A stretch of 37,920 nt of DNA from a virus (IMGVR_UViG_2737471826_000005); one strand, 5' to 3'; shown: positions 1-37,920, counted from the stretch's first letter. The notes: generated by a model from the letters alone, not told the origin. Program-made: numbers and translations.

Positions 1-428
1 TCTGATTGACTGTCCGTGGCACTGCTCAGCTGTACGGTGCCTTTTGCCGTCAGCGAGGCAGCAGGCACTCCCGTTATCTGACTCCACGGGTGAGTGTGGC
101 TGACGGGGGCCTTGCCGGCAGCAAGGTCATATGCAGCCTTGACGGCCTTTGGTGTGGCGGCCAGCGTTTCAGAGGTGCTGTTGGTGGCACTGCTCAGTTG
201 GGTGAACCCCTTAGCTGTCAGTGTCGCGTCCGGGTGGTTACGGGAACGTACGTGTTCAGCCAGTGACTGTGCGGCTTCCTCCGTTTTTTTCTTCAGCCAT
301 TTCGTCCTGTTTGCCAGTTGCCGGGGGGCTCGATTTGATATCCCGTCAGCACCACCCAGAACCGGATCTGATGTCTCCAGTTGATAGATTTTTTCTTCCC
401 ACTTTTCTGTTTCATTCAGGTTTCCCAT
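1..428 (-). CDS. tail fiber protein, N-terminal part (gene continues beyond left edge)
   Basis: Minus-strand ATG at 428 directly after gpI-like stop; translation MGNLNETEKWEEKIYQLE...HPDATLTAKGFTQLSSATNSTSETLAATPKAVKAAYDLAAGK matches the conserved P2 gpH/Mu S-type fiber repeat; not in the ORF track because it runs off the window. Confidence 0.7.
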   Translation of the reverse strand, partial: MGNLNETEKWEEKIYQLETSDPVLGGADGISNRAPRQLANRTKWLKKKTEEAAQSLAEHVRSRNHPDATLTAKGFTQLSSATNSTSETLAATPKAVKAAYDLAAGKAPVSHTHPWSQITGVPAASLTAKGTVQLSSATDSQS

Positions 429-4263: not shown

Positions 4264-4466
4264 GGGGCAATATCCTCTTCTGTACGGGCTTCTTCAGCCT
4301 CAATCACCGGGATCAGTAACAACAGCCCGGAGGGCAGCACCGGCGTGATGGCCACGTGCGGATTGGCGGCAATAATCCGGGGATAGCCCAGCGGGTCACC
4401 GTAGTACTGCCATGCCAGCGAATCCCAGCGCTCTCCGTCACGGGTAACATGTTCAAGAAACATCAC
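4251..4466 (-). CDS. phage tail protein X-like
   Basis: 71 aa; ...WDSLAWQYYGDP...IIAANP... resembles Phage_tail_X family. Confidence 0.7.
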   Translation of the reverse strand: MMFLEHVTRDGERWDSLAWQYYGDPLGYPRIIAANPHVAITPVLPSGLLLLIPVIEAEEARTEEDIAPWLR

Positions 4467-22369: not shown

Positions 22370-22499
22370 GTGTGTCTCCTTGTCTGGTGGAGACAGCATC
22401 ACAAATACAGGGCGCGAAGGATTTTAAAGCGCGTTAAGAGAGCCGGGGATACGGGATGTGCAGGATAAACGATGAATTATTCACAGAGGAGAATACGAT

Positions 22500-23243
22500 A
22501 TGACGCAGACACTGAATCCGGTCATCACTGTCACCGTGTCCGGTCCTGTGGGCAGCGGTAAAAGTTACATATTGGCGCGGATAGAGGAAGTGGTGAAACA
22601 GGAATTCGGGGGCAGCGTCATTGTCGATGCTGCAGACGTAGATGATGAGCGGCGTATGAGTGGCGATGATCTGACGACCTGGCAGAAGCCACGGGGTGGC
22701 ACAGTGATCAGGCTGGAGGAATACACGGGACAGGGCCTGTTGTCATACGGCGAGGAGCGTATCTGTCGGACGAATGAGCTGCTGGATGTTATATGCCCCA
22801 CGGGCCGGCAACCCTGGATACTGCCCGATGCACTGCATGCCACCATTGCGGCACTGATGACAGTTTACGATCAGGAGCTGCTCATGAAGGAGCTACGTAA
22901 ACTCACCGGTCAGCCAACAGAATGTTTTTCTGCCCCGAAGTACGGGAAACAGGAACACATCCCGGTGAACACGCTCCCCGTTAACCAGCCTCCCCGGTTC
23001 TTCGACGAATACATTCTGACACCGGAAAATAAAGCTGAGCACGAAGAGATCAAAGCGGCGTTGTTCCGGGAAATCAGGAAGATTGCTGAAATGCAACTGG
23101 GGGGCGGGCTGGACAGAGTGATGGCGAGAGGAGAATGGGAGTCGCTGTTTGAAAGAGTTTCCCCGGAATTACTTCCCCTCGCACTGGCTATCGGGATTAT
23201 GCAGACAGCGGATAAACCTCACTTACGTTCATTAAACACGTAA
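22500..23243 (+). CDS. P-loop NTPase/kinase-like protein, unknown function
   Basis: Walker A GPVGSGKS at residues 15-22; GAGGAG RBS; no family assigned. Confidence 0.6.
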   Translation: MTQTLNPVITVTVSGPVGSGKSYILARIEEVVKQEFGGSVIVDAADVDDERRMSGDDLTTWQKPRGGTVIRLEEYTGQGLLSYGEERICRTNELLDVICPTGRQPWILPDALHATIAALMTVYDQELLMKELRKLTGQPTECFSAPKYGKQEHIPVNTLPVNQPPRFFDEYILTPENKAEHEEIKAALFREIRKIAEMQLGGGLDRVMARGEWESLFERVSPELLPLALAIGIMQTADKPHLRSLNT

Positions 23244-23623
23244 CGCATAATCCGGGATACGCATTCAGCGATGACTGCATTTTCACCGGTTTTTACTGCA
23301 TCCAGAAGTGACTCTTTAAATGGTGCGGGCCGGGGCTGCAGAAGGGTCGGCGTGGCATTGAGCAGACGGAGCGTTTTTTCCGTGAGGACGACATCAGCCG
23401 CTCCCACAGCCAGCAACTGAGAGTAACGAATATAGCTGTTATCCCGAAGCCATATCAGCGTATCAATAAAATACCGGCACTTTTTCTGGTCGTGATCAAC
23501 CTGGTCCGGGATATCGAAAAAACCAGAATAAATCAAAACCTGAGGTGCCGGATGCGTGTTCAGTAATCGGCAGAATATTTTGCCGGTGAGTGCATAAAAA
23601 TCATCATTTAAGGAGTGCATCAT
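23219..23623 (-). CDS. hypothetical protein, convergent with P-loop gene
   Basis: 134-aa ORF filling an otherwise 378-bp gap; weak G-rich RBS. Confidence 0.4.
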   Translation of the reverse strand: MMHSLNDDFYALTGKIFCRLLNTHPAPQVLIYSGFFDIPDQVDHDQKKCRYFIDTLIWLRDNSYIRYSQLLAVGAADVVLTEKTLRLLNATPTLLQPRPAPFKESLLDAVKTGENAVIAECVSRIMRYVFNERK

Positions 23624-23837
23624 GAATCCCCGATTAACGTTAACAGAACATCAGCGCCGTGCTGAAGCAGTGAACAATGTTCTGGAAGATATTATCCGGT
23701 TACATCGCGGAGAACTGAGTGTCTGTCGTGCCGCTTTTCATTTTCAGGGAATACAAAAGCAGTTTGATACTTCTGTTTTTGCAGAAGGTATTACTTATGC
23801 CCTGGACCGGATAAGGTCAGAAAATCGCCCCGGATAA
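23622..23837 (+). CDS. hypothetical small protein
   Basis: 71 aa, strong AAGGAG RBS 6 nt upstream of ATG. Confidence 0.5.
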   Translation: MNPRLTLTEHQRRAEAVNNVLEDIIRLHRGELSVCRAAFHFQGIQKQFDTSVFAEGITYALDRIRSENRPG

Positions 23838-24028
23838 TCCCTAAACCACATTAACAGAAATCCCACTATCCCTGCCGCATCATGAAAGAACGACCAGCCC
23901 GGTGCTTCGGACCCACCGGGCTGGCCATCGTCCCACAGAAGTGGCTGTGAGCCGACCGAGGTTCAGTCAGTCTCGCGAGACCAGACTAGCCTGCCATATT
24001 TTTAATAATTGTAAAAGGCTTACAGATT

Positions 24029-24793
24029 ATGAAAATGAAGACATTACCCATCGTTCCATGGATTGGTGGCAAACGTCGCCTGGCAAAACACATCCTGCCG
24101 CTGTTTCCGGCGCATGAATGTTATGTGGAGCCGTTTTGTGGGGCAGCAGCGCTCTATTTTCTTAAGACACCCGGCAAGATCGAAGTCATCAATGATATCA
24201 ACGGTGAACTGGTGAATCTGTACCGGGTGGTAAAGCATCACCTGGAAGAATTTGTCCGCCAGTTCAAATGGGCGCTGGTCAGCCGTCAGATCTACAAATG
24301 GCTGCAGATCACCCCGGAAGAAACACTGACGGATATCCAGCGTGCGGCACGGTTCTACTACCTTCAGAAGCAGGCGTTTGGCGGCAAGGTGGCAGAGCAC
24401 AGCTTCGGTACCTCCACCACATCCCCGCCACGCTTCAACCTGCTGCGTATTGAAGAAGAACTGTCAGCAGCACACCTGCGGCTTTCCAGAACAGTCATAG
24501 AACACATGGACTGGCAACAGTGCATTGAGCGTTATGATCGTCCGCACACACTGTTCTACTGCGACCCACCGTACCTGGGTACGGAAGGCTATGGTGTGGA
24601 TTTTCCTGAAGGGAACTACTCGCGGCTGGCAGAGCTGGCCCGGTGCATCAGAGGAAAAATGATAATTTCGGTGAACGATATCCCACAGATGCGCGAGGTG
24701 TTCACTGGACTGAACATACAGACAGTGAACATCAACTACAGTCTGGCGGGGAAATCTACGCCGCGCCGTGAACTGGTAATCTGCAACTTCTGA
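24029..24793 (+). CDS. DNA N6-adenine methyltransferase, Dam (D12 class)-like
   Basis: N-terminal WIGGKRRL and catalytic DPPY motifs. Confidence 0.85.
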   Translation: MKMKTLPIVPWIGGKRRLAKHILPLFPAHECYVEPFCGAAALYFLKTPGKIEVINDINGELVNLYRVVKHHLEEFVRQFKWALVSRQIYKWLQITPEETLTDIQRAARFYYLQKQAFGGKVAEHSFGTSTTSPPRFNLLRIEEELSAAHLRLSRTVIEHMDWQQCIERYDRPHTLFYCDPPYLGTEGYGVDFPEGNYSRLAELARCIRGKMIISVNDIPQMREVFTGLNIQTVNINYSLAGKSTPRRELVICNF

Positions 24794-24825
24794 AACAAAA
24801 CCGGAAAGCACAATGCTTTCCGGTA
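24790..24825. terminator. hairpin between convergent dam-like and repressor genes; U-run on minus strand
   Basis: ACCGGAAAGCA / TGCTTTCCGGT stem; TTTTGTTTCA follows on minus strand. Confidence 0.5.
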
Positions 24826-24909
24826 AACCAAACAACTTCCACTATGTCACTGGCGATGTTTTCTGAAAGCATCCAGATCAACCACCTGTCCTTTGTGTCC
24901 AGGTCAAAA

Positions 24910-25248
24910 TCAGCCTGCGAGTTTGCTTGGTTTGGGTTGAATGAAGACTTTGCCGACCTCAAGAATTGCCCTCCGTTGTTCGGGGCTCATTTCGTCGAAT
25001 GCATCCATTAACTCTTTCTTTTCTTGTGACACATAAGGTGCAACAACAGGCTGACTCCGCACCCCAGTAACTACATACAAAATATCTACACCGATTTCTG
25101 ATAGTGCAGATAACTGCACTGCAGTAGGAGAAGTGCGATCTTTTTCCCAATCAATGAAAGTTCTCTTTGCCACACCTATAGCATCAGCCAACCCTTGCTG
25201 TGTAAGAGATAGACGCTCTCTTTCTTCTTTAATACGTAACCCGATCAT
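24910..25248 (-). CDS. prophage repressor, HTH XRE/cI-like
   Basis: MIGLRIKEERERLSLTQQGLADAIGVAKRTFIDWE HTH; divergent from early operon; track ORF is an N-terminal extension. Confidence 0.7.
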   Translation of the reverse strand: MIGLRIKEERERLSLTQQGLADAIGVAKRTFIDWEKDRTSPTAVQLSALSEIGVDILYVVTGVRSQPVVAPYVSQEKKELMDAFDEMSPEQRRAILEVGKVFIQPKPSKLAG

Positions 25249-25272
25249 GTGAGTTTTTCTGCACTCTTTAAG

Positions 25273-25301
25273 TTGACTGGTGAGGTAATCTGCACCATAA
25301 T
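25273..25301 (+). promoter_or_regulatory. candidate sigma70 early promoter with overlapping repeated TCTGCAC operator-like motif
   Basis: TTGACT, 17-bp spacer, CATAAT; TCTGCAC at 25258 and 25289. Confidence 0.45.
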
Positions 25302-25348
25302 CTATCACACATAAGGCAAACATCATTGCATCAACAAAGGAGACAACG

Positions 25349-25537
25349 ATGACTGCAGAACAAGTCAAAGCTCTCTTCCGCCAGCGCGGGATCACTTTCA
25401 CCCGCTGGGCAGAAGAAAACGGCTACAACCGCAATGAGGTATACCGCGTTCTCAATGGGCAGACCAAAGCCCGTTACGGTAAATCCCATGAAATCGCCGT
25501 GAAGTTGGGGCTGAAATCAACAGCTCAGGCAGCCTGA
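25349..25537 (+). CDS. small DNA-binding protein, Ner/Cro-like
   Basis: 62 aa, first gene of rightward operon, AAAGGAG RBS. Confidence 0.55.
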   Translation: MTAEQVKALFRQRGITFTRWAEENGYNRNEVYRVLNGQTKARYGKSHEIAVKLGLKSTAQAA

Positions 25538-25583
25538 AGATTTTGAGTCTTTGTAAAAGGTTATCACATATCGCAAAAGAGGT

Positions 25584-25898
25584 ATGCAGATGAGTAAGAC
25601 GAATGTTTCAAGCTCCGGCAGTCGCATCCTCCGGGTACTCAAAGCGCTGCGCGGTCATGCCCTGAACGGTATTTCCAACGGTGAACTGGCGGCAGCACTG
25701 CACGAGTCACCGGCAAACATCAACCGGGCACTCAACACCCTCATTGAAGAAGGGTTGGCCCTGAAACTGGAAAACGGGCGTTTCGCGCCGGGCATCCAGT
25801 TACTGCAGATCGCTATGGCCCACAGTAACGAGATGGCACGTGCACAGGATCGCATTAACGAAATCAACCAACGTGTCATTTCAGGTAGTCGTTTGTAA
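25584..25898 (+). CDS. putative winged-helix DNA-binding protein
   Basis: 104 aa, ...NGELAAALHESPANINRALNTLIEEGL... HTH-like. Confidence 0.5.
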   Translation: MQMSKTNVSSSGSRILRVLKALRGHALNGISNGELAAALHESPANINRALNTLIEEGLALKLENGRFAPGIQLLQIAMAHSNEMARAQDRINEINQRVISGSRL

Positions 25899-25908
25899 GG
25901 AGTAATAA

Positions 25909-26820
25909 ATGGGACGCACCAAATCACCGATTAACACTGAACTGAACGCCGAGGTACCGCTGTCGGATGATCTCAATGTCAGTCTGAACGCCATGACACA
26001 GCATCGTATGGAGATCATGCAGCAGTTTGGCGATGGTCAGCCCTATGAGCGTGATCGCATAGTTCATGAGGCTCGGTTTTATATGGCACAGAGCGCTGAG
26101 GCCATGCTGGAAGCAGGTAAACGACTTATTATTCTCAAAGAAAATGAACCTCACGGGGACTTTGTTGGAATTGTAGAAGAACAACTTGGTCTGCATGTGC
26201 GCGCAGCACAACGAATGATGAAAGCATCTTTGAAATACCTTTCACCAAAACTAGAGCCAAAAGCGACAACGTTGTCGCTTTTAGGTAAGGCAAAATTATT
26301 TGAACTTGTTGCTGAAGATGACGACGACCTTGCTGAACTGGCCGACGGTGGCACAGTTGCCGGACTGACGCTTGACGATGTTGATCGCATGTCAGTACGT
26401 GAATTGCGTCAGGCCCTGCGCGAAGCGCGCGAAACCAACGCAGCACAACAGCGCGTACTCGCCGACAAAAATGAAAAAATAGACTCACTCTCCACCAGAC
26501 TGGAGAAGAAATCCCGTATTCAGCCACCTGAGCCTGATGAAGAGGTGAAGAAACTGCGGGCAGAAGTGACCGCGTTAGCGGTTGAGGCGGAATCTGCCAT
26601 CGCCGTTCGACTGTCCAGCGCTTTTGAGACGCTGTGCGCATATTGTGCTGAAAACATGATTGATACCCCCAGAGACTTCATGGCAGGCCTGGTCTGTCAA
26701 CTGGAAAGCACAGCGCGTAGCCTGCGCTCCACATTTGACCTGCCGGACGAGCCAACAGGCAATGCAGCGCCTTCATGGCTGACTGAGCCGACGCCACAGA
26801 TTAACGGGCTGGAGGCATAA
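25909..26820 (+). CDS. hypothetical protein (acidic, coiled-coil-rich)
   Basis: 303-aa ORF immediately upstream of transposase. Confidence 0.5.
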   Translation: MGRTKSPINTELNAEVPLSDDLNVSLNAMTQHRMEIMQQFGDGQPYERDRIVHEARFYMAQSAEAMLEAGKRLIILKENEPHGDFVGIVEEQLGLHVRAAQRMMKASLKYLSPKLEPKATTLSLLGKAKLFELVAEDDDDLAELADGGTVAGLTLDDVDRMSVRELRQALREARETNAAQQRVLADKNEKIDSLSTRLEKKSRIQPPEPDEEVKKLRAEVTALAVEAESAIAVRLSSAFETLCAYCAENMIDTPRDFMAGLVCQLESTARSLRSTFDLPDEPTGNAAPSWLTEPTPQINGLEA

Positions 26821-26823
26821 CCA

Positions 26824-28593
26824 ATGAATGCTGCCCTGACTGAACGACTGGTTTATGTCGCCCGCGCGGCACGTGACGCGGGGCATGGTAAACGCGGCGC
26901 AGTATACGACGCTGCCTGTGCTGAACTTGGCATGTCCCGCGCCACTCTGCTGCGCAGGCTGAAGGAGGTATCTGTGACTGATAAACGCAAAAAACGCGCC
27001 GATGCCGGGCGCAGCGCCCTGACCCGCGACGAAGCCGCGCTGATATCTGCCACACTGCGTGAGGCCACCCGCAAGAACGGTAAGCGTCTCTATTCCATCG
27101 CGGATGCAGTGGAAACCCTGCGGGCTAACGGCTTTATATCCGCAGGCAGAACAGATGAAACCACCGGTGAGTTTTTCCCGTTGTCCGAAGATGCCATCAG
27201 CCGAGCCCTGCGTAACTATGGCCTGCACCCGGAACAACTGGATGCCCCTGCGCCGCATACCGAAGTGGCCAGTCTGCATCCCAATCATGTCTGGCAGATT
27301 GACGCCTCACTCTGCACGCTTTACTACCTGAGCAATGGACATAAAGGGCTGCAGGTGATGGACAGCGCGAAGTTCTACAAGAACAAGCCCGCTAACCTTG
27401 CCCGTATCGCCAGTGACCGCGTGTGGAGTTACGAGATTACCGACCATGCCAGCGGCTGGATTTACGTTGAGTATGTGACGGGCGCGGAATCAGGTGAGAA
27501 CCTGTGTTCTGTGCTTATCAACGCCATGCAGGAGCGTGGCGGCGCAGACGTGCTGCACGGTGTGCCGAAAATACTCTATCTCGACCCCGGCTCGGCAAAC
27601 ACCGCGGGTATGACGAAAAACATGTGCCGCTCACTGGGCATCGACCTGATAGCGCACAAGCCGCATAACGCCCGCGCCACCGGACAGGTGGAAAAGGCGC
27701 GGGACATTATCGAACGCAAGCTGGAGCCGGGTCTGAAGTTCCGGCCGGTTCACAGTCTGGAAGAACTCAACGCGCTGGCCGCGAAATGGCGCAGCCACTT
27801 TAACGCCACGGCTGTTCACAGCCGCCACGGTAAAACCCGCACGGATATCTGGCTGAAGATTACTGCTGAGCAGCTGAAAAAAGCGCCTTCCGTTGAGGTA
27901 TGTCGTGAACTGGCTGTGGCGGCACCAGAACTCCGCAAAGTCACGCCAAAACTTCGTGTCTCGTTCCGGGGCACTGAATTTGACGTATCAACGGTACCGG
28001 GCGTACTGGTTGGTGAAAAACTGATGATTACCCGTAACCCGTGGCGCAGCGATGTGGCACAGGTGGTTCTGACCGGTGAGGACGGCCACGAGACGTTCTT
28101 CCTGGTCGAAGAGGTCAGAAAGAACGAGTTTGGCTTTGCTGAAGGCGCGGCGGTATTTGGCGAAAGTTACAAAGCCCTGCCGGAAACCCCGGCGCAGATG
28201 GCGGCAAAAGAAACCGAAGCGCTGGTCACCGGTACAGACAACGCCGCAGATGCAGCTGCCGCACGCAAGGCGAAGGCGCTGCCGTTCGGCGGGCGGCTTG
28301 ACCCGTATAAACATATCGACGACACCACACTTCCGGCCTATATGCCGAAGCGTGGTCAGGCCTCTGACGTACGCGGGCCGCGCACTGAACAACGTCCCAT
28401 GACTTATGTGGAGGCCGCGAAAGCCCTGCGCGATAAGTTCAGCGCCAACGGCTTTACCTGGACGCCGGAACATTACCGCCAGTTAACGGCACAGTATCCG
28501 GACGGCGTACCGGAAGCCGCACTGGATGAAGTCATGGCCACGCTGACCACGCCGGCCCGCAGCAGCGTTATCAGTATTGTTAACGGCAACTGA
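26824..28593 (+). CDS. DDE transposase, Mu A-like
   Basis: 589 aa; HPNHVWQIDASL and YLDPGS integrase-core-like motifs; followed by B-like ATPase. Confidence 0.85.
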   Translation: MNAALTERLVYVARAARDAGHGKRGAVYDAACAELGMSRATLLRRLKEVSVTDKRKKRADAGRSALTRDEAALISATLREATRKNGKRLYSIADAVETLRANGFISAGRTDETTGEFFPLSEDAISRALRNYGLHPEQLDAPAPHTEVASLHPNHVWQIDASLCTLYYLSNGHKGLQVMDSAKFYKNKPANLARIASDRVWSYEITDHASGWIYVEYVTGAESGENLCSVLINAMQERGGADVLHGVPKILYLDPGSANTAGMTKNMCRSLGIDLIAHKPHNARATGQVEKARDIIERKLEPGLKFRPVHSLEELNALAAKWRSHFNATAVHSRHGKTRTDIWLKITAEQLKKAPSVEVCRELAVAAPELRKVTPKLRVSFRGTEFDVSTVPGVLVGEKLMITRNPWRSDVAQVVLTGEDGHETFFLVEEVRKNEFGFAEGAAVFGESYKALPETPAQMAAKETEALVTGTDNAADAAAARKAKALPFGGRLDPYKHIDDTTLPAYMPKRGQASDVRGPRTEQRPMTYVEAAKALRDKFSANGFTWTPEHYRQLTAQYPDGVPEAALDEVMATLTTPARSSVISIVNGN

Positions 28594-28603
28594 GGAGGGA
28601 AAC

Positions 28604-29770
28604 ATGCTGGTACTGAAGCAGCAACTGAAAGAAGCCCGTATTCCACAGGCGGTGGTGGCGAGAGCTGTCGATGTTTCTGAGGCCACGCTGGCCCAGATTG
28701 TGAATCATAACGCGTGGCCCCGCACCAGCCCCGGAGAAGTGCGCCGGCGTCTTGCGTCCTGGCTGGAAAGTCAGGGGATTGATACAACGAAGAGTTTTGA
28801 TGCTGTACAGGGCGCGGCCACGCCCCGTACAGCGGGTACCACAGATAAAACGAGCCTCAGTGAGGAAGAGAATATGTTACTCAAAAAACAGGTGTTATTT
28901 CCAGCAACCAAAAAAGCGTTTGGTCTTTTCCGTGACCCGTTCGCCGACGAAGCCATGCAGGGTTCTGATGATGTGTTCACCACCCCGGATATTCGCTACG
29001 TGCGTGAGGCGTTGTACCAGACAGCCCGTCATGGTGGGTTTATGGCCGTCATCGGTGAGTCCGGTGCGGGTAAATCCACGCTGCGCCGCGACCTGACTGA
29101 ACGTATCAACCGCGAGAATGCGCCGGTAATTGTTATCGAGCCATACATCATCGCTATGGAAGACAACGATGTGAAAGGGAAAACCCTGAAGGCAGCAGCG
29201 ATTGCCGAAGCCATTATCAGTACCATCGCACCACTGGAAAGCATCAGACGCAGTCAGGACGCCCGCTTTCGCCAGTTGCATCGCGTCCTGAAAGACAGCA
29301 GCCAGGCGGGGTTCAGCCACGTTCTGGTGATTGAGGAGGCCCACAGTCTGCCCATTCCGACACTGAAACACCTCAAACGCTTTTTTGAGCTGGAGTCCGG
29401 TTTCAAAAAACTGCTGTCCATCGTGCTGATTGGCCAGCCGGAACTGGCGACAAAACTGTCTGAACGCAATATGGAAGTCCGTGAAGTCGTTCAGCGCTGT
29501 GAGGTGGTCGAACTTCTGCCTCTGGACAATAACCTTGAAGAGTTTCTGACGTTCAAACTGCAACGGGCCGGTAAACAACTGACGGACATTATGGACGCCA
29601 GCGCAGTGGATGCCATACGTGCCCGCCTGAGCAATCCGGGAAGTCATCGTAAAAATATGGTCAGCCTGCTGTATCCGCTGGCCGTCAGTAACCTGGTAAT
29701 AGCCGCCATGAATCTGGCCGCTGAAATCGGGGTTCCACAGGTCAACGCTGACGTTGTCAAAGGGGTTTAA
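28604..29770 (+). CDS. transposition ATPase, Mu B-like
   Basis: Walker A GESGAGKST, Walker B-like HVLVIEEAH; GAGGAG RBS before ATG at 28604. Confidence 0.85.
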   Translation: MLVLKQQLKEARIPQAVVARAVDVSEATLAQIVNHNAWPRTSPGEVRRRLASWLESQGIDTTKSFDAVQGAATPRTAGTTDKTSLSEEENMLLKKQVLFPATKKAFGLFRDPFADEAMQGSDDVFTTPDIRYVREALYQTARHGGFMAVIGESGAGKSTLRRDLTERINRENAPVIVIEPYIIAMEDNDVKGKTLKAAAIAEAIISTIAPLESIRRSQDARFRQLHRVLKDSSQAGFSHVLVIEEAHSLPIPTLKHLKRFFELESGFKKLLSIVLIGQPELATKLSERNMEVREVVQRCEVVELLPLDNNLEEFLTFKLQRAGKQLTDIMDASAVDAIRARLSNPGSHRKNMVSLLYPLAVSNLVIAAMNLAAEIGVPQVNADVVKGV

Positions 29771-29772
29771 TA

Positions 29773-30042
29773 ATGAAATCCACCACAGGTATCAACCAGC
29801 AAATCAGCAAAGTGCAGTCAGCCATTATGGCGCTTAAGGCGACGAACACGGATGTACAAAGCATCACCATCAGGGGTAACAAACCTGTCATCCGCGTTTC
29901 CCGGAGTGCGCATTGCATGCGCATGCTTGAGCAGGGAAAGGCCTGTTATCTGTATACCGGTCATGACCACAGGGGACATTTCCGTCAGGGCGTTTTCGAA
30001 CTGCACGGCTGTCGCGTCGTGTGGCCGGAATCTTTGTGGTAA
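29773..30042 (+). CDS. hypothetical protein
   Basis: 89 aa, coupled to B stop. Confidence 0.5.
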   Translation: MKSTTGINQQISKVQSAIMALKATNTDVQSITIRGNKPVIRVSRSAHCMRMLEQGKACYLYTGHDHRGHFRQGVFELHGCRVVWPESLW

Positions 30043-30069
30043 TCAGCACAACAGGAGGAGTCATAAAAT

Positions 30070-30600
30070 ATGGCAAAAAGTACAAAAGGGGCAAAACGTA
30101 TCAAAGCCGCAGCAGCACTCTGGGTGCCGGGGACACGCGAAGAGGTCATTGAGGGAATCAGACTGCTTGGTGACGCGCAACGTGAACTGGTCAGGGCTGA
30201 AACAGAAATGAATGACACCATTGGCGACATCACCGCACGTTATGCCCCGCTCACCGAGAGCCTGAAAAAACGCATGGCCGAACTGCAGTCCGGTATTCAG
30301 ACATGGTGTGAGGCACACCGTGATGAACTGACCGGCAACGGGAAGGTGAAGTTCGCTAACCTCACCACCGGCGAGGTGCAGTGGCGAAACCGTCCGCCGT
30401 CAGTCAGTATCCGTGGGGCGGATAATGTTATTGAATTACTGAGACGTCTGGGGCTTGAGCGCTTTATCCGTGTAAAGGAGGAAATAAATAAAGACGCCAT
30501 CCTGAATGAAAAGGACGCCGTGAAAAATATTCCCGGTATTACCATAAAAAGTGATATTGAGGATTTTTCAATAATTCCTTTTGAGCAGAATGTGCAGTAA
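30070..30600 (+). CDS. gam: host-nuclease inhibitor Gam-like (Mu Gam family)
   Basis: 176 aa, coiled-coil N-terminal half, position after B; GGAGG RBS. Confidence 0.75.
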   Translation: MAKSTKGAKRIKAAAALWVPGTREEVIEGIRLLGDAQRELVRAETEMNDTIGDITARYAPLTESLKKRMAELQSGIQTWCEAHRDELTGNGKVKFANLTTGEVQWRNRPPSVSIRGADNVIELLRRLGLERFIRVKEEINKDAILNEKDAVKNIPGITIKSDIEDFSIIPFEQNVQ

Positions 30601-30696
30601 AAACAGCATATAAGCTATTTAAAACAGCCTTTTCTTTTTTATTCCGGCATCAGCGCCGTGGGCTTCTGCACGCCGGAAACAGAGGAGAATTAAATC

Positions 30697-30891
30697 ATGA
30701 TATTTAAATGTATTCAGTGCGAGAGGGATATAACAGCCCTGCGTTTTCACAGCGCCATCGCCGTGATGTCCGGTAAGTACCACGTACCTGCAGTACGCGT
30801 CACCCTGGTCTGTCCGTACTGCAGTCAGCATTTTTCGGCAGACGTGCCCGTCATGGAATTCTCCCGCCCTGACAGGGAGGACTCGCAATGA
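30697..30891 (+). CDS. small zinc-ribbon protein (CxxC...CxxC)
   Basis: 64 aa, Cys at 5, 8, 39, 42. Confidence 0.5.
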   Translation: MIFKCIQCERDITALRFHSAIAVMSGKYHVPAVRVTLVCPYCSQHFSADVPVMEFSRPDREDSQ

Positions 30892-31160
30892 TTACCCCAC
30901 AGGAAGCACGACAGCGCACCCGAACCCTTGTTGAACACTATGTCAACGAGTGTGAATGCCGCGACCTCACCGATGTGAAGCACGTCCTGACGGCGCTAAT
31001 CAGCATGACCGCTCAGGCCATTGTGGCGACCAACGGAAAGGCGGCTGCCCTGCAGGTACTGGTGAACACACTCACCCACACGGCAGAGCACGATGTGCCG
31101 TACCGGATGGAAACCACTGCAGAAGGCGGCCTGAACATCACCGTCGACCGGAAACACTGA
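30888..31160 (+). CDS. hypothetical protein
   Basis: 90 aa, ATGA overlap with upstream gene. Confidence 0.5.
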   Translation: MITPQEARQRTRTLVEHYVNECECRDLTDVKHVLTALISMTAQAIVATNGKAAALQVLVNTLTHTAEHDVPYRMETTAEGGLNITVDRKH

Positions 31161-31169
31161 GGGCGCGGC

Positions 31170-31475
31170 ATGACACGGAACACCGAACTCACCCGCACCG
31201 CCCTCTACCGTCTGGCCCTGCAGCGTTTCGGGCCGGACGCACAGGCCCTGAAACTGACAGAAGAGGCCGCTGAACTGGCGGCCAGTGCCGCCCGCAACCT
31301 GAACGGACAGGGCAGCGAAAGTGACCTCGCGGCAGAGCTGGCAGACGTGGAAATCATGACAGAGCAGCTGCGCCTTCAGGGAATGGACCGGCTGATTGAC
31401 TTCCACAAACAGAAAAAACTGGAACGCCTTGCCGCACGGCTGGGCGTCATGTACACCGGAGATACTGAACAATGA
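31170..31475 (+). CDS. MazG-like nucleotide pyrophosphohydrolase (small all-alpha type)
   Basis: 101 aa with LKLTEEAAELAA...AAELADVEIM acidic helix pattern. Confidence 0.6.
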   Translation: MTRNTELTRTALYRLALQRFGPDAQALKLTEEAAELAASAARNLNGQGSESDLAAELADVEIMTEQLRLQGMDRLIDFHKQKKLERLAARLGVMYTGDTEQ

Positions 31476-32155
31476 CAGACCAGGATAAACACATTGAGAA
31501 ACTGAAAAAGTTGCTGGCGCTGGCCGCATCCGGCAACCCTCACGAGGCCGCTCTGGCACTGCGCCGTGCCCGTAAACTGATGGATGTTCACGGCATCACA
31601 CATTCCGACATCGCCATGAGTGATATTGATGAAACCATCAGTCACTACTGGCCGACAGGCAGCCTCCGTCCACCGCGCTACATGCTGGGCCTGATGAACA
31701 TCATCCGCGAGGCATTTGGTGTTAACTCCATCATTCACCCCGGCACATATCCGGGTGTGGGGTTCTACGGCAACCGGGAACGGGCTGCACTGGCTGCGTA
31801 CACCTGGGAAGTGCTGGCCCGCCAGCTGAAAAAGGCGCGTCAGCAATATATCAGCGCACAGAACAAAAGAATAAAAACTGCCACCCGTACCAGCCGTGGT
31901 GACCAGTTTGCTGAAGGCTGGGTGCTGGCCGTTATCAGTGAAATACAGTCCTTCGCCCTGACCGATGACGAACGTGAACTGATGCAGCAGTGGCTGGAAC
32001 ATAAATACCCGCAGACGCAAACCACCAGGGCGCGTAAACCGGGAAGAAGCCGCAATGGCGACGCCTCGCGCTATGCGGGGTTTCTTGAAGGGCAGAACGT
32101 CAGACTGCACCGCCCGGTCAGTGGGCAGGAACAACAGAAACTGGAGGCCAGATGA
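31472..32155 (+). CDS. conserved phage protein (DUF2786-like N-terminus)
   Basis: IEKLKKLLALAASGNPHEAALALRRARKLM motif. Confidence 0.55.
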   Translation: MTDQDKHIEKLKKLLALAASGNPHEAALALRRARKLMDVHGITHSDIAMSDIDETISHYWPTGSLRPPRYMLGLMNIIREAFGVNSIIHPGTYPGVGFYGNRERAALAAYTWEVLARQLKKARQQYISAQNKRIKTATRTSRGDQFAEGWVLAVISEIQSFALTDDERELMQQWLEHKYPQTQTTRARKPGRSRNGDASRYAGFLEGQNVRLHRPVSGQEQQKLEAR

Positions 32156-32382
32156 TTACGCTATCAGGTAAAAGCCGGAAATTAAAAGCCTGCCGAATAT
32201 CTGCCAGATACCTTTTTGCCCGCGCCTTTTTTAAGAACGTCAGGCCGGGGATCACAATTGGTGTTATTGCCGGACGCGAACAGGTTGAAAAATACATGTC
32301 AGGTGCATGGTGGAATAACGACCCTGTCATTGCTGCCCGTAATATTCATATCAGTTGGGGGGATATTCAGAATGACGGCTGA
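32152..32382 (+). CDS. hypothetical protein
   Basis: 76-aa ORF, coupled. Confidence 0.4.
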   Translation: MITLSGKSRKLKACRISARYLFARAFFKNVRPGITIGVIAGREQVEKYMSGAWWNNDPVIAARNIHISWGDIQNDG

Positions 32383-32587
32383 ATCTGTTGTATGTGCCCT
32401 GTTCTGGTATTGTTTTGTCGGTTGGTGTACTGCTGAACTGCACCGCCGTTCAGGGTTTTATTCACGTTACAGTGGTGCTGGCTACTGGATTAGCTGGTCG
32501 GTGATGTTCCTGTGCTGGCCTGTGGCGCTTCCTTTATATGTCGATTATATCGGTGGCGCAGGTAAAAGGAGCAACGATGATGACTAA
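32372..32587 (+). CDS. small hydrophobic/membrane protein
   Basis: 71 aa from internal ATG of track ORF 32216..32587; AATGACGGCTGA overlap with upstream stop. Confidence 0.4.
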   Translation: MTAESVVCALFWYCFVGWCTAELHRRSGFYSRYSGAGYWISWSVMFLCWPVALPLYVDYIGGAGKRSNDDD

Positions 32588-33029
32588 ACAACGTCTTATC
32601 CAGCTCATTCATATTGCCCGTAATGAACTGGGTATGGATGAAGACACCTACCGCCAGATGTTACAGGGGCTGACCGGTAAAGCCTCAACCAAAGGAATGG
32701 ATACCACACAACTAAACTGCGTGCTGGAATCCATGAAAAGGAAAGGCTTTCGCGTTAAGCCTGCCGGAAAAGCCAGCTCCGGTTTACCGCTGGATAACCA
32801 TCCGCAGTCCAGGAAAATCCGTGCGCTATGGCTTGAAATGGCTGCTGCCGGCATTGTTCGTGACCGTTCAGAAAATGCATTAGCGCGGTGGATCAAGCGG
32901 GAAACGGGCATCAGCGCCCTGCGCTGGCTCAGTACTGAACAGGCAAGCAGTGTTATTGAGAAACTGAAGAAGTGGCAGCGCAGAGCTGCGGGAGTCAAAC
33001 ATGAGCGACCTGAATCAGTTTCGAAGTAA
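32577..33029 (+). CDS. GemA-like protein (Mu gp16 family)
   Basis: Position immediately upstream of mor; RLIQLIHIARNELGMDEDTYRQ motif. Confidence 0.65.
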   Translation: MMTKQRLIQLIHIARNELGMDEDTYRQMLQGLTGKASTKGMDTTQLNCVLESMKRKGFRVKPAGKASSGLPLDNHPQSRKIRALWLEMAAAGIVRDRSENALARWIKRETGISALRWLSTEQASSVIEKLKKWQRRAAGVKHERPESVSK

Positions 33030-33399
33030 AGGGCCGGAACTCCTGGTGGAGCTGGCACAGCATACCTCTGAGACCGTTCGCGAGATTATTGATATTGAGC
33101 CCGCAATTGCCGACCAGATTGGTCAGGCCGTCGCGAACCGAATGATGCAGGTCTGGGGCGGGCAAAACGTTTATTTCCCGATGGGCATGGTATGGAAGGT
33201 CAGTCAGCGCGACCGGGAAATCTTCAGGGAGTTTAACGGACGCAACCACCACGAACTGGCCCGCAAGTTTGGTGTTTCGCTTCAGTGGGTCTACAGCGTG
33301 GTTAAGCGGGTCAGAAAAGAAGAACTGGATCGGATGCAGGGCAGGTTGTTTGATGAAGATCTGCCAGAGGAGACGAAAGACGTTAACAAATCCAGATAA
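33001..33399 (+). CDS. mor: Mor/C-family transcription activator
   Basis: C-terminal FNGRNHHELARKFGVSLQWVYSVVKRVRK matches Mu Mor NDFNGRNVSELTTRYGVTFNTVYKAIRRMRR. Confidence 0.85.
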   Translation: MSDLNQFRSKGPELLVELAQHTSETVREIIDIEPAIADQIGQAVANRMMQVWGGQNVYFPMGMVWKVSQRDREIFREFNGRNHHELARKFGVSLQWVYSVVKRVRKEELDRMQGRLFDEDLPEETKDVNKSR

Positions 33400-33442
33400 T
33401 TCCTGCTTGTTAAAGTCCTTTCAAAAATCTCCTTATTGTATA

Positions 33443-33477
33443 AAAGCACGGTAGACCCCTTACCGTGCTTTTTTTAT
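33443..33477 (+). terminator. rho-independent terminator after mor
   Basis: AAAGCACGGTA / TACCGTGCTTT stem, 7-nt loop, T7 run. Confidence 0.8.
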
Positions 33478-33513
33478 GCTCTCTCTTTAGTATTCAGGAT
33501 GCAGGGAGAAAAT

Positions 33514-33948
33514 ATGTTTGACGTTTCGTTGTTAAATCTGCCATGGGCAACACTGGTGACCCTGACCAGTGGCTATATTGGGTATTTTATTGCGAATGTG
33601 GGACTGAAGGATCACCACAAGCCCATTGAGGTGACTTTTTCTTCGCTGATTTTTGGCCTGACAGCAATGATGGCTTACCAGGCTGTTATGTGGGCAGGTC
33701 TGAATGCCTGGCTGGCAACACCACCAGCACTTCTGTGTGCCGTTACATGCGGTGCGTGGTGGCGCAGGTACGGTCGCAAATGGATGTACAGATTACTGTG
33801 GAATAATGATATTTCATGGTCTGACGATACCAGCTCAGCATGGCAGGCAATGTTTGATCAAACAGGCTTCAGCGTTACCGAGGTCAGAGTGATTCTTCGC
33901 GATGGTTCCGGTATGATGTCACGGCTGCCAGGGAACTTTGAAGAGTAG
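33514..33948 (+). CDS. three-TM membrane protein; reading frame continues past an in-frame TAG to 34146
   Basis: GGAG RBS before ATG 33514; three hydrophobic segments; TAG at 33946-33948 followed by 66 further in-frame sense codons. Confidence 0.5.
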   Translation: MFDVSLLNLPWATLVTLTSGYIGYFIANVGLKDHHKPIEVTFSSLIFGLTAMMAYQAVMWAGLNAWLATPPALLCAVTCGAWWRRYGRKWMYRLLWNNDISWSDDTSSAWQAMFDQTGFSVTEVRVILRDGSGMMSRLPGNFEE

Positions 33949-34496
33949 CCTAACGGTCCGTTTACCCTGGGGAATAAAGGCGATATGGTTCTTTACGTCA
34001 CGCACAGCAGCCCTTCAGGCAGTAACGAATGGGAAGAGTATAAAGGCGTGGTTGATAAGTACTGGGGAGCTCTGGCAACCTATATTCCAGCAGATCAGAT
34101 TGCCAGAGTGGAGATCAGGCGCGTTCGTGCAACGAACGATGAATGATGTTTATTTTTTCCCTGGGGCAGGGGCTGCCGGCATAGTGGTTTTATTGGCAGA
34201 GGAAGACGATTCTCCTTTTCTACCGGAATCGCGCTCGAACGTCACGATGTGCTTGCTTTTGGGCTTTTCTGAGTAATCCAGGCTATCATGCTTATTGTTT
34301 TGAGTAGTCATTGGAATCATCCTTTTTGTTGCGGGTCATGTTTCAGCAAACTCGATTCTAAGTTGCCAGGAAGGATGATTTCAATGCCCGACTTATCTAT
34401 CGTATAGCGGAAAAGAATTTCAGTTCTGTTCACCAGAACCCATGTTAACCCACTCCAATTCGTTATTTATCTCACGGATCCCCCTTCATTTATCTC

Positions 34497-35264
34497 ATGT
34501 CTGATCATCTGGGCTTTCGTTCGTCACTGCTGCAAGCGAGCTTTAACTACGAAAGGATGCAGGCGGGCGGTTTTACCTGGGCGATGTTGCCGATCCTGAA
34601 AAAGATTTATAAGGACGACAAACCGGGCCTAAGCGCGGCGATGAAAGATAACCTCGAATTTATTAATACCCACCCGAATCTGGTCGGATTCCTGATGGGG
34701 TTATTAATTTCGATGGAAGAAAAAGGAGAAAACCGCGACACCATTAAAGGCCTCAAAGTGGCACTGTTTGGCCCAATCGCCGGGATTGGCGATGCGATTT
34801 TCTGGTTTACCTTATTGCCGATTATGGCGGGAATTTGCTCATCATTTGCCAGCCAGGGAAACTTGCTGGGGCCGATTCTATTTTTCGCCGTTTACCTGCT
34901 TATCTTCTTCCTGCGCGTCGGCTGGACCCACGTCGGTTATTCAGTCGGCGTGAAGGCGATCGATAAAGTGCGAGAGAACTCGCAGATGATTGCTCGTTCG
35001 GCAACCATCCTCGGGATCACGGTAATCGGCGGGCTGATCGCTTCGTATGTGCATATTAACGTGGTGACATCGTTTGCCATCGACAGTACCCACAGCGTCG
35101 CGCTGCAGCAGGATTTCTTCGATAAAGTCTTCCCGAATATTTTACCGATGGCCTACACCCTGCTGATGTATTACTTCCTGCGGGTGAAAAAAGCGCATCC
35201 GGTGCTGTTAATCGGCGTGACGTTTGTTCTTTCTATTGTTTGTTCTGCATTCGGCATTTTGTAA
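34497..35264 (+). CDS. agaD: PTS N-acetylgalactosamine-specific IID component, 5'-truncated/altered by prophage insertion
   Basis: Body of protein matches AgaD as I recall it, but N-terminus MSDHLGFRSS replaces native MGSEISKKDITRLGFRSS. Confidence 0.8.
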   Translation: MSDHLGFRSSLLQASFNYERMQAGGFTWAMLPILKKIYKDDKPGLSAAMKDNLEFINTHPNLVGFLMGLLISMEEKGENRDTIKGLKVALFGPIAGIGDAIFWFTLLPIMAGICSSFASQGNLLGPILFFAVYLLIFFLRVGWTHVGYSVGVKAIDKVRENSQMIARSATILGITVIGGLIASYVHINVVTSFAIDSTHSVALQQDFFDKVFPNILPMAYTLLMYYFLRVKKAHPVLLIGVTFVLSIVCSAFGIL

Positions 35265-36032
35265 ATGGAACGAGGCACCGCGTCTGGCGGTGCCTCTTTA
35301 CTTAAGGAATTTCATCCTGTGCAAACCCTTCAACAAGTTGAAAACTATACGGCGTTAAGTGAACGTGCCAGCGAATATTTATTGGCCGTGATCCGTAGCA
35401 AACCGGATGCCGTGATTTGCCTGGCGACCGGAGCCACGCCATTACTGACGTATCATTATCTGGTAGAAAAAATCCACCAGCAGCAGGTTGATGTCAGCCA
35501 GCTCACCTTCCTGAAGCTCGACGAATGGGTGGATCTGCCATTAACGATGCCTGGCACCTGCGAAACTTTCCTACAACAGCATATCGTGCAGCCGCTGGGG
35601 CTGCGTGAAGACCAGCTCATCAGCTTTCGCTCCGAAGAGATAAATGAGACAGAGTGCGAACGGGTAACGAACCTGATTGCGCGCAAAGGCGGTCTGGATT
35701 TATGCGTTCTCGGATTGGGGAAAAACGGTCATCTTGGGCTGAACGAACCGGGAGAAAGCCTGCAACCGGCCTGCCATATCAGTCAACTTGATGCCAGAAC
35801 ACAGCAACATGAGATGTTAAAAGCCGCGGGCCGTCCCGTGACTCGTGGGATCACCTTAGGCCTGAAGGATATTCTCAATGCCCGCGAAGTTTTGTTACTG
35901 GTGACTGGCGAAGGAAAGCAGGATGCGACAGAACGTTTTCTCACGGCTAAAGTCTCTACCGCTACCCCGGCTTCATTTTTATGGCTGCATAACTATTTCA
36001 CATGCATGATTGATGAGATGTGTCGTCGTTAA
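35265..36032 (+). CDS. agaI: putative galactosamine-6-phosphate deaminase/isomerase
   Basis: 255-aa NagB-like protein in aga locus. Confidence 0.8.
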   Translation: MERGTASGGASLLKEFHPVQTLQQVENYTALSERASEYLLAVIRSKPDAVICLATGATPLLTYHYLVEKIHQQQVDVSQLTFLKLDEWVDLPLTMPGTCETFLQQHIVQPLGLREDQLISFRSEEINETECERVTNLIARKGGLDLCVLGLGKNGHLGLNEPGESLQPACHISQLDARTQQHEMLKAAGRPVTRGITLGLKDILNAREVLLLVTGEGKQDATERFLTAKVSTATPASFLWLHNYFTCMIDEMCRR

Positions 36033-36041
36033 CTCGCCTGG

Positions 36042-36080
36042 TACAGGCGTTGCAACGCTATTCCTGCTGCAACGCCTGTA
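36042..36080. terminator. palindromic hairpin between convergent agaI and rsmI
   Basis: ACAGGCGTTGC ... GCAACGCCTGT arms with internal palindrome GCGTTGCAACGC. Confidence 0.4.
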
Positions 36081-36081
36081 A

Positions 36082-36945
36082 TCACTCTCCCTGCTGCTCC
36101 AGCGCATACTTATACAGCGCATTTTTCTTCACGCCGTGAATTTCTGCTGCCAGCGCCGCCGCTTTTTTCAGCGGCAGTTCTGCCTGCAACAGCGCCAGTG
36201 TGCGCAGTGCATCGGCGGGTAAGTCTTCTTCCTGTGCTTTATGGCCTTCAACAATCAGCACCATTTCGCCTTTACGACGGTTTTCATCTTCTTTGACCCA
36301 CGCCAGCAGCTCGCCAACGGGCGCGCCGTGAATGGTTTCCCAGGTTTTGGTCAGCTCACGCGCCAGAACCACGTAGCGGGATTCGCCTAATACCGCAACG
36401 ATATCTTCCAGGCTATCTAACAGACGGTGGGTAGATTCATAAAAAATCAGCGTACGCGGCTCCGCTTCAATGGCTTTTAGCGCATCACGGCGGCCTTTTG
36501 ATTTGGCAGGTAAAAATCCTTCATAACAAAAACGATCGGATGGTAAACCCGCGGCGCTTAACGCAGTGATAGCAGCACACGGCCCGGGTAGCGGCACCAC
36601 GCGAATCCCCGCTTCACGGCAGGTACGCACCAGATGGTAGCCAGGATCGTTAATTAGCGGCGTTCCGGCATCGGAAACCAGCGCAATGTTTTGCCCCTCT
36701 TGCAGCTTCGCCAGCAGCGTTTCGGCTTTTTGTTGTTCGTTATGGTCGTGCAGCGCAAACAACCGAGCATTAATCCCAAAATGTTGCAGCAATAAACCGG
36801 TGTGACGCGTATCCTCGGCGGCAATCAGATCAACGGCCTGTAATACCTCCAACGCACGCTGGGTGATATCCGCCAGATTGCCGATTGGCGTCGGTACAAT
36901 GTAAAGCTGGCCCTGAGAATTATCCGCCGATTGGTGTTGTTTCAT
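36082..36945 (-). CDS. rsmI: 16S rRNA 2'-O-ribose C1402 methyltransferase
   Basis: 287-aa protein recognised as RsmI (YraL). Confidence 0.9.
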
Positions 36946-37009
36946 TGTGTCGTCCGTATTGCCGATTTAATATTGAGCATTGCGTAAAAAAAATATCACT
37001 GGATACATT

Positions 37010-37920
37010 ATGGTACCCTCAACATTTTCTCGTTTGAAAGCCGCGCGTTGTCTGCCTGTTGTTCTGGCAGCCCTGATTTTCGCCGGTTGTGGCACCCATA
37101 CTCCCGATCAGTCCACTGCTTATATGCAGGGCACGGCGCAGGCTGATTCTGCCTTTTACCTGCAACAGATGCAGCAAAGTTCTGATGATACCAGGATCAA
37201 CTGGCAATTACTCGCCATTCGTGCACTGGTGAAAGAAGGTAAAACCGGACAGGCGGTGGAGTTGTTTAACCAACTACCGCAAGAACTGAACGATTCTCAG
37301 CGTCGCGAGAAAACACTGCTGGCGGCAGAGATTAAACTGGCGCAGAAAGATTTTGCTGGCGCGCAAAACTTGCTGGCGAAAATCACACCTGCCGATTTAG
37401 AACAAAACCAGCAAGCCCGTTACTGGCAGGCAAAAATCGATGCCAGCCAGGGGCGTCCTTCCATTGATTTACTGCGCGCGTTAATTGCTCAGGAACCGCT
37501 GCTTGGCGCGAAAGAAAAACAGCAGAATATTGATGCCACCTGGCAGGCGCTCTCCTCCATGACTCAGGAACAGGCGAATACGCTGGTGATCAATGCCGAC
37601 GAAAATATTCTGCAAGGCTGGCTGGATCTGCAGCGCATCTGGTTTGATAACCGTAACGATCCCGACATGATGAAAGCTGGGATCGCCGACTGGCAGAAAC
37701 GTTATCCGAACAACCCGGGCGCGAAAATGCTGCCAACGCAGTTGGTTAACGTAAAAGCGTTTAAACCCGCATCGACCAACAAAATCGCCCTGCTGTTGCC
37801 ACTGAATGGCCAGGCAGCGGTATTTGGTCGCACTATTCAGCAAGGCTTTGAAGCGGCGAAAAATATCGGCACTCAGCCAGTGGCGGCTCAGGTAGCTGCC
37901 GCACCTGCCGCAGACGTAGC
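37010..37920 (+). CDS. lpoA: penicillin-binding protein activator LpoA, N-terminal part (continues beyond window)
   Basis: ATG at 37010; MVPSTFSRLKAARCLPVVLAALIFAGCGTH lipoprotein signal; not in track because it runs off the edge. Confidence 0.9.
   Translation, partial: MVPSTFSRLKAARCLPVVLAALIFAGCGTHTPDQSTAYMQGTAQADSAFYLQQMQQSSDDTRINWQLLAIRALVKEGKTGQAVELFNQLPQELNDSQRREKTLLAAEIKLAQKDFAGAQNLLAKITPADLEQNQQARYWQAKIDASQGRPSIDLLRALIAQEPLLGAKEKQQNIDATWQALSSMTQEQANTLVINADENILQGWLDLQRIWFDNRNDPDMMKAGIADWQKRYPNNPGAKMLPTQLVNVKAFKPASTNKIALLLPLNGQAAVFGRTIQQGFEAAKNIGTQPVAAQVAAAPAADV

Follow-up and report, generated by a model that had tools for sequence, protein, structure and literature searches.

A probable insertion of a BcepMu-like transposable prophage into agaD of Escherichia coli

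The window, i.e. the whole stretch of 37,920 nucleotides that was analysed, is the entire draft contig JUCU01000073.1 (GCA_000798415.1). We are highly confident that its positions 1-34507 represent most of a BcepMu-like transposable prophage of about 38.3 kb, the Mor-proximal end of which is inserted in agaD. For annotation, the analysis supplies a base-exact boundary of this prophage.

The junction with agaD

The junction is surrounded by the following features:

34504-34507, plus strand: terminus of the element, ...ATCA-3'; read inward, both ends of the element start with 5'-TGAT
34508-35264, plus strand: 3' part of agaD (nt 36-792, codons 13-263), 100% identical to strain 20AR0192; Pfam EIID-AGA
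35265-37920: host flank with agaI (35265-36032, plus strand), rsmI (36082-36945, minus strand) and the start of lpoA (37010-37920, plus strand)

An earlier note on this DNA had placed the end of the element (...TGATCA) at 34507, inside agaD, which was correct to the base. In the pairwise DNA alignment with an uninterrupted agaC-agaD sequence, which the note had proposed, 34508 is the first base that matches the native locus (TCTGGGCTTTCG...), no identity is present upstream, and the exact junction is 34507/34508. The break falls at a single base: native agaD reads ...GATATCACCCG/TCTGGGCTTTCG, the window ...CATGTCTGATCA/TCTGGGCTTTCG. Everything to the left of this point is prophage, and its Mor-proximal terminus, ...CATTTATCTCATGTCTGATCA-3', is joined to nt 36 of agaD, the third base of codon 12. 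Homology to agaD from window position 34508 onwards is found in more than 5,000 of 5,426 complete E. coli genomes, none of which spans the junction of agaD with the prophage. The host flank beyond agaD is collinear with the uninterrupted locus of strain 20AR0192 (L002); its genes were called in locus L014.

As had also been noticed before, the agaD reading frame of the window (34497-35264) starts with MSDHLGFRSS. The native N-terminus is MGSEISKKDITRLGFRSS, as found in strain 20AR0192, where the gene is uninterrupted and otherwise 100% identical. The MSDH prefix arises because an ATG at 34497 in the foreign DNA, within the terminal candidate transposase site described below, happens to be in frame with agaD. 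Thus the ORF beginning with MSDH is an accidental fusion, and the chimeric 'agaD' that gene callers report as a 255-aa protein is now explained. An outward promoter was looked for, and no promoter-like site was found upstream of the chimeric ORF on the plus strand; expression of the fusion from such a promoter was therefore rejected. Direct reading of the sequence gave no Shine-Dalgarno sequence before the ATG. It is possible, though unlikely, that on induction read-through from the early operon of the phage uses this ATG to express the shortened AgaD together with AgaI.

Exactly this chimeric protein of 255 aa is found in five contigs from independent assemblies, among them a 155-kb contig of GCA_021110135.1 and the Logan assembly of SRR16011167. 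When two of the junction-bearing loci were compared with the window over 13.4 kb, each differed by a single base. Since several assemblies share this junction, an assembly artefact is excluded and the insertion is passed on within a small lineage. In place of a chromosomal prophage one could suspect a chimeric assembly, or a virion DNA molecule with packaged host DNA at its end, as the window is a draft contig broken off within tail-fibre repeats and transposable phages package host DNA at their ends. However, the identical junction in these five contigs (two NCBI assemblies and the assembly of the Logan run included) and the 3.4 kb of collinear chromosome that follow the end of the element argue against this. 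Moreover, each particle packages different host flanks, from which no single consensus would be assembled. We consider the probability of such an artefact to be close to nil.

Insertion sites and target-site duplication

The 608 bp that end at 34507 are present with 99.7-99.8% identity in at least 118 of the 5,426 complete E. coli genomes. In most of these 118 genomes the match ends exactly at the equivalent of 34507 and the flanks differ. The genes found beyond the terminus number in the dozens and include rstB, fadM, gcl, mdfA, irp1, kefF, ptsP, clbG, tdh and ybhJ. A fixed terminus at many unrelated loci indicates a transposable element and not an att-site prophage. With its many insertion sites, TG...CA termini and short target duplications the element is a transposable phage in the broad sense. 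A site-specific prophage with integrase and att site was rejected as the insertion loci vary and no tRNA lies at the junction; neither a tRNA nor an Rfam family was found at the junction or in the A+T-rich terminal stretch. The sole recombinase in the complete copies is a 190-aa Gin-like invertase located beside an invertible tail-fibre segment.

Both junctions were read for five complete sister copies (L001, L003-L010). All five are flanked by 6-bp direct duplications:

G749, in gabP: GGAATG
3347558, in phnP: GCGAGG
Esc31, in malE: GAAGGT
N61, in a cysteine hydrolase gene: GCTATC
OZ040015, in ybhJ: GTGATT

The empty malE site, rebuilt with a single GAAGGT, was found at 100% identity over 44 nt and gap-free in more than 1,000 genomes. 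Since it matches without a gap when only one GAAGGT is kept, the duplication is 6 bp long and not 5 bp as in Mu. The 5-bp target duplication that had been expected from the Mu rule is thus not what this family of elements produces. For the insertion in agaD the duplication is predicted to be TCTGGG, with the left copy outside the window:

34508-34513, plus strand: TCTGGG, predicted right-hand copy of the duplication, agaD nt 36-41

All five sister duplications begin with G in the orientation of the window and the predicted TCTGGG does not; the initial G may reflect a target preference or a small-sample effect.

If the insertion was simple, agaD's ...GATATCACCCGTCTGGG would precede the other prophage end, TGATGCGCCGCGCGATAAATG..., and the other junction would read ...AAAGATATCACCCGTCTGGG/TGATGCGCCGCGCGATAAATG... 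with TCTGGG duplicated. Alternatively, the prophage could have mediated a rearrangement (an adjacent deletion or inversion through replicative transposition) after which its other end does not abut the 5' end of agaD. Transposable phages such as Mu are known to cause adjacent deletions and inversions. Furthermore, the left junction lies outside the window, and it was not found in the genome and metagenome collections, where it was looked for as agaD nt 22-35 followed after 0-12 nt by the other end; the right junction, used as the control, was likewise absent there, so that these scans say nothing either way. Against a rearrangement stands that each of the five complete sister copies is a simple insertion flanked by a clean duplication of 6 bp, that the junction is stably inherited in several isolates, and that the right host flank is collinear with the normal locus. 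A rearrangement is thus very unlikely, and we infer a simple insertion with duplication of TCTGGG.

Repeated motifs at the prophage end

The last part of the prophage contains the following features:

34312-34507: non-coding, A+T-rich terminal region at the Mor-proximal end, equivalent to the left end of BcepMu; no called gene
34462-34476, minus strand: inner candidate transposase site, core GAGATAAAT at 34465-34473, nt 35-43 from the terminus
34485-34499, minus strand: terminal candidate transposase site, core GAGATAAAT at 34488-34496, nt 12-20 from the terminus; supplies the ATG at 34497

The G+C content is 40.6% over 34277-34510 and 41.7% over 34321-34507, compared with 55% for the prophage. 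The DNA upstream of agaD is therefore A+T-rich, as described before, but the description of all of it as non-coding does not hold, since 34277-34311 is coding on the minus strand, where it forms the 5' part of the small gene at 34150-34311.

The window contains exactly two copies of the 10-mer ATTTATCTCA (34465-34474 and 34488-34497), which share a strand and are spaced by 23 bp. The repeats are real, although the positions first given for them (34466 and 34490) were off by one to two nucleotides. The motif GNGATAAAT has three matches in 37.9 kb (0.72 expected), two of which are located in the last 43 bp of the element. Read inward from the terminus, the ends of the E. coli element and of BcepMu are:

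Window end: TGATCAGACAT GAGATAAAT GAAGGGGGATCCGT GAGATAAAT AAC (cores GAGATAAAT)
Other E. coli end (G749): TGATGCGCCGC GCGATAAAT GCACTCTATCTTGT GCGATAAAT GGC (cores GCGATAAAT)
BcepMu left end: TGAAGAGAGGT GAGATATTT CCAAGGGAGAACGC GCGATATTT CCG (cores GAGATATTT and GCGATATTT)
BcepMu right end: TGAAGCGCGGC GCGATATTT CAGCACGTCGACGC GCGATAAAT TCG (cores GCGATATTT and GCGATAAAT)

G[AC]GATAWWT is present at nt 12-20 and 35-43 in all four of these ends, and its orientation is inverted between the two ends of an element. Both ends of phage B3 have similar motifs in nearly the same register. With a matrix made from BcepMu only, the terminal site ranks 84 and the inner site 34 among 75,812 positions in the window; for two positions specified beforehand, the probability of reaching such ranks jointly is of the order of 1e-6. 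As this matrix does not place the sites at the top, their case rests on the conserved register. Judged by this register, the two ATTTATCTCA repeats are probably transposase-binding sites, as the earlier note had suggested. The TTATCT at 34392, which the note had listed together with them, was rejected as a third or internal site: its score of about 6 bits is at chance level, as the window contains 78 hits of this strength, and neither BcepMu nor the other end of the element has a matching motif.

Traces of the prophage ends are also present on plasmids. A relic with both ATTTATCTCA sites and about 91% identity to the prophage end of the window is found on about 70 large conjugative plasmids; ColV-type plasmids of avian pathogenic E. 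coli are among them, as are a few from Klebsiella and Citrobacter. In p1ColV5155 (L018, NZ_CP005931.1) the relic at about 3480-3625 corresponds to window 34365-34498, with an alignable stretch of about 135 bp; it is located amid IS fragments, and phage genes are absent nearby. The relic probably derives from the end of a related element that has since decayed. From the other prophage end, the final ~464 bp are found on about a dozen P1-like plasmids of 89-98 kb; the homology reaches exactly to the terminus ...GCGCATCA, after which the sequences diverge. This sequence is a solo transposon end within the P1-like tail-fibre/invertase module. The one P1-like plasmid that was examined, the phage-plasmid L017 (NZ_CP028585.2; stretch 3814-4464, compared with L001 40113-40763), encodes a Gin-like recombinase identical to that of the prophage (WP_000904922.1). 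Such an arrangement suggests that the phage once inserted into a P1-like plasmid and that the homologous tail-fibre regions then recombined.

Gene content of the prophage

The prophage and those of its genes that matter here are:

1-34507: very probable BcepMu-like transposable prophage, left-incomplete; the window starts inside the tail-fibre gene
26824-28593, plus strand: TnpA transposase, rve-type DDE, 589 aa; Pfam rve only; PHROG 310 'transposase'
28577-29770 (annotated start 28604), plus strand: TnpB transposition ATPase, ExeA-type AAA+; Pfam AAA_22; PHROG 296 'DNA transposition protein'; named 'ExeA family' by PGAP
32538/32577-33029, plus strand: gemA, near the end of the early arm; Pfam GemA 1e-40
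33001-33399, plus strand: mor, with gemA the last conserved genes of the early arm; Pfam Mor 1e-43
33514-34146, plus strand: accessory phage gene of 210 aa, phrog_12870 (both halves match), broken by an in-frame amber codon at 33946-33948
34150-34311, minus strand: small conserved phage gene of 53 aa, phrog_15726 at 1e-41; annotated in G749 and called in L012-L014

The late genes (head and P2-like tail) occupy the minus strand at about 1-22400 and the early arm the plus strand at about 24000-34150, diverging from the region of about 22400-24000. Strain G749 has a complete prophage of 38,335 bp in gabP, from which window 1-34507 differs by 9 mismatches without gaps (99.97% identity). About 3.8 kb are absent from the window, namely the 3' end of the tail-fibre gene, an assembly gene, the invertible segment, the Gin-like recombinase and the other terminus. 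Window positions 1-200 recur three to four times at 89-98.5% identity in the tail-fibre gene of G749, and these repeats probably caused the contig to end at the left edge of the window. Internal repeats of about 260-535 bp are also found in the tape-measure gene (window 5948-6743).

The amber codon in the 210-aa gene is a change of TGG to TAG (G to A at 33947) relative to locus L012 and splits the gene into 33436/33514-33948 and 33985-34146. In two sister isolates carrying the same agaD insertion the gene is intact, and the amber codon alone distinguishes the window from them over 13.4 kb. Either a private mutation or an error in sequencing could account for it.

The 53-aa gene points inward, away from the prophage end, and is preceded by the promoter-like sequence TTGAAA-18-TAGAAT (34384-34355, minus strand). 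In a 16-nt inverted repeat (34309-34324 and 34371-34386) the -35 region pairs with the Shine-Dalgarno sequence and the ATG start codon of this gene. Compared with shuffled sequences, the RNA fold of the region is no more than modestly better (z = -2.1). One possibility is that the repeat blocks the translation of transcripts that read in from the host.

Relationship to BcepMu and Mu

TnpA is 68% identical to BcepMu gp09 over 98% of its length, and tblastn gave 68-69% identity to BcepMu and phiE255. The transposases of Escherichia phage PhiKM and Pseudomonas phage B3 share 98% and 56% identity with TnpA, respectively. TnpB is 59% identical to BcepMu gp08 (E=1e-167). The gene order runs from Mor and GemA by the terminus through the ATPase, the transposase, the repressor region and the lysis genes to a Mu-like head and a P2-like sheath, tube and baseplate. 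gemA and mor have the same place next to the terminus as BcepMu genes 02 and 01, and the gene map of the G749 annotation mirrors that of the BcepMu annotation.

The element could nevertheless be a true Mu-family prophage (Muvirus: Mu, D108, SfMu) with MuA and MuB, Mu-type att sites and a 5-bp duplication. Its TG...CA termini and insertion at many loci would fit, as would its homologues of Gam, GemA and Mor, which were detected with Pfam and are common to Mu. However, BLASTP detected no similarity between TnpA and MuA (E=0.48) or between TnpB and MuB (E=2.5), and the MuA and MuB Pfam domains were not found. Among the tblastn matches of the transposase BcepMu and B3 are present and phage Mu is absent. 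A PDB sequence search with TnpA gave only weak matches to retroviral integrases (rve), without any MuA chain; with TnpB it gave generic P-loop matches. Likewise, the inversion of the early arm relative to the late genes, the P2-like tail, the 6-bp duplication in all five copies, and the two candidate binding sites per end with their different consensus argue against Mu-family membership. With MuA, MuB, a 5-bp duplication and a collinear early operon all lacking, membership in Muvirus is refuted at the family level, and a true Mu-family prophage is extremely improbable. The element is best described as working like Mu yet belonging to the BcepMu/B3 lineage. Its former designation as a Mu-type transposon therefore holds for the Mu-like way of working and fails for membership in the Mu family, given a transposase and ATPase unlike MuA and MuB and a BcepMu-like map.

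Consequences for galactosamine uptake

The ~38 kb prophage would separate codons 13-263 of agaD and agaI from agaC and the agaS promoter, and the insertion should abolish the galactosamine enzyme II AgaBCD. AgaBCD is the galactosamine transporter, whereas N-acetylgalactosamine is taken up by another enzyme II; the agaI gene is dispensable (PMC3668189; correction PMC4049405). In O157:H7, an amber codon in agaC results in a Gam- phenotype and the strain is still Aga+ (PMC3668189); in the corrected figure, Aga uptake is assigned to the separate enzyme II (PMC4049405). As the two sugars use different enzymes II, the expected defect is Gam- and not Aga-. The prediction that PTS function for N-acetylgalactosamine would be lost as well was thus too broad. 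Our prediction for this small E. coli lineage is a simple phenotype, loss of galactosamine uptake with N-acetylgalactosamine uptake unaffected; the window, from which it is made, holds only part of the aga cluster.

In strain 20AR0192, whose uninterrupted agaC-agaD locus is the closest one, an IS1 (L002 881-2134) is located inside agaB, which is an independent knock-out of the same transporter. K-12, which has a 2.3-kb deletion in the aga cluster, is also Gam-. Because of these two cases and the agaC amber codon of O157:H7, the insertion in agaD might be seen as one of several independent AgaBCD knock-outs that reflect recurrent selection against the transporter and not a neutral accident. We regard this as unlikely.

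Proposed mechanism

By analogy with other DDE transposases of this class, the following course of events can be proposed. The rve-type DDE transposase (26824-28593) would bind the two 23-bp-spaced sites at each end, pair the ends and nick them at the terminal CA, exposing the 3'-OH. Its ExeA-type AAA+ partner (28577-29770) would choose the target DNA, and the ends would then be joined to target positions staggered by 6 bp. Repair, or replication in lytic growth, would leave the 6-bp duplication, here presumably TCTGGG.

The analysis documents a widespread transposable prophage of E. coli as a member of the BcepMu/B3 transposase lineage. Because of the 6-bp duplications and the two 23-bp-spaced end sites, its boundaries would be misplaced by annotators who assume Mu rules. 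The kind of phage is already known: near-identical prophages are annotated in RefSeq genomes and the relative PhiKM has been deposited. The result is thus a correct but ordinary piece of annotation, and the current understanding of transposable phages is unchanged.

Comparison with known systems

Burkholderia phage BcepMu (Bcepmuvirus; NC_005882) resembles the element in its transposase (68%), its ExeA-type ATPase (59%) and the location of Mor and GemA beside one terminus. In both, the early and late arms diverge, the endolysin is of the SLT type, the head genes are Mu-like and the contractile tail is P2-like; the termini are TG...CA, and each end has two copies of G[AC]GATAWWT, at nt 12-20 and at nt 35-43. 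In contrast to BcepMu, the host of the element is E. coli, its DNA is not alignable with BcepMu outside genes, it has two extra small genes between mor and the terminus (33514-34146 and 34150-34311) and it carries a Dam-type methylase. At the far end, in the complete copies of the element, the acyltransferase of BcepMu is replaced by the invertible tail-fibre segment and the Gin-like recombinase.

The nearest deposited phage genomes are PhiKM (PQ738613), Escherichia phage Phi06_2974 B and Klebsiella phage KP12. PhiKM shares 95% DNA identity over 83% of the early arm; the alignment ends at window position 33359, and the Mor-distal accessory genes and the terminal region are unaligned in that record. 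Pseudomonas phage B3 (Beetrevirus) has a 56% identical transposase and similar end motifs. It differs in its siphovirus tail and in its end sites, which are more diverged and of which one is displaced by a base.

Escherichia phage Mu is likewise temperate, integrates by transposition at near-random sites and has TG...CA ends with several transposase sites each, Gam, GemA and Mor regulators and Mu-type head genes. Its transposase and ATPase, however, are unrelated in sequence, its duplication measures 5 bp and that of the element 6 bp, and early and late genes are collinear in Mu, whereas the early arm of the element is inverted relative to the late genes. Mu has three transposase sites per end, the element two candidate sites.

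Tn552 makes duplications of 6-7 bp and has two adjacent transposase sites of about 23 bp at each end, which would fit the pattern seen here. Unlike the element, it is a small resistance transposon and not a phage. The BcepMu record labels its own transposase 'Tn552/IS1604 rve transposase', and the relationship to Tn552 as well as the TG...CA termini have been described for BcepMu-related prophages (PMC2628397).
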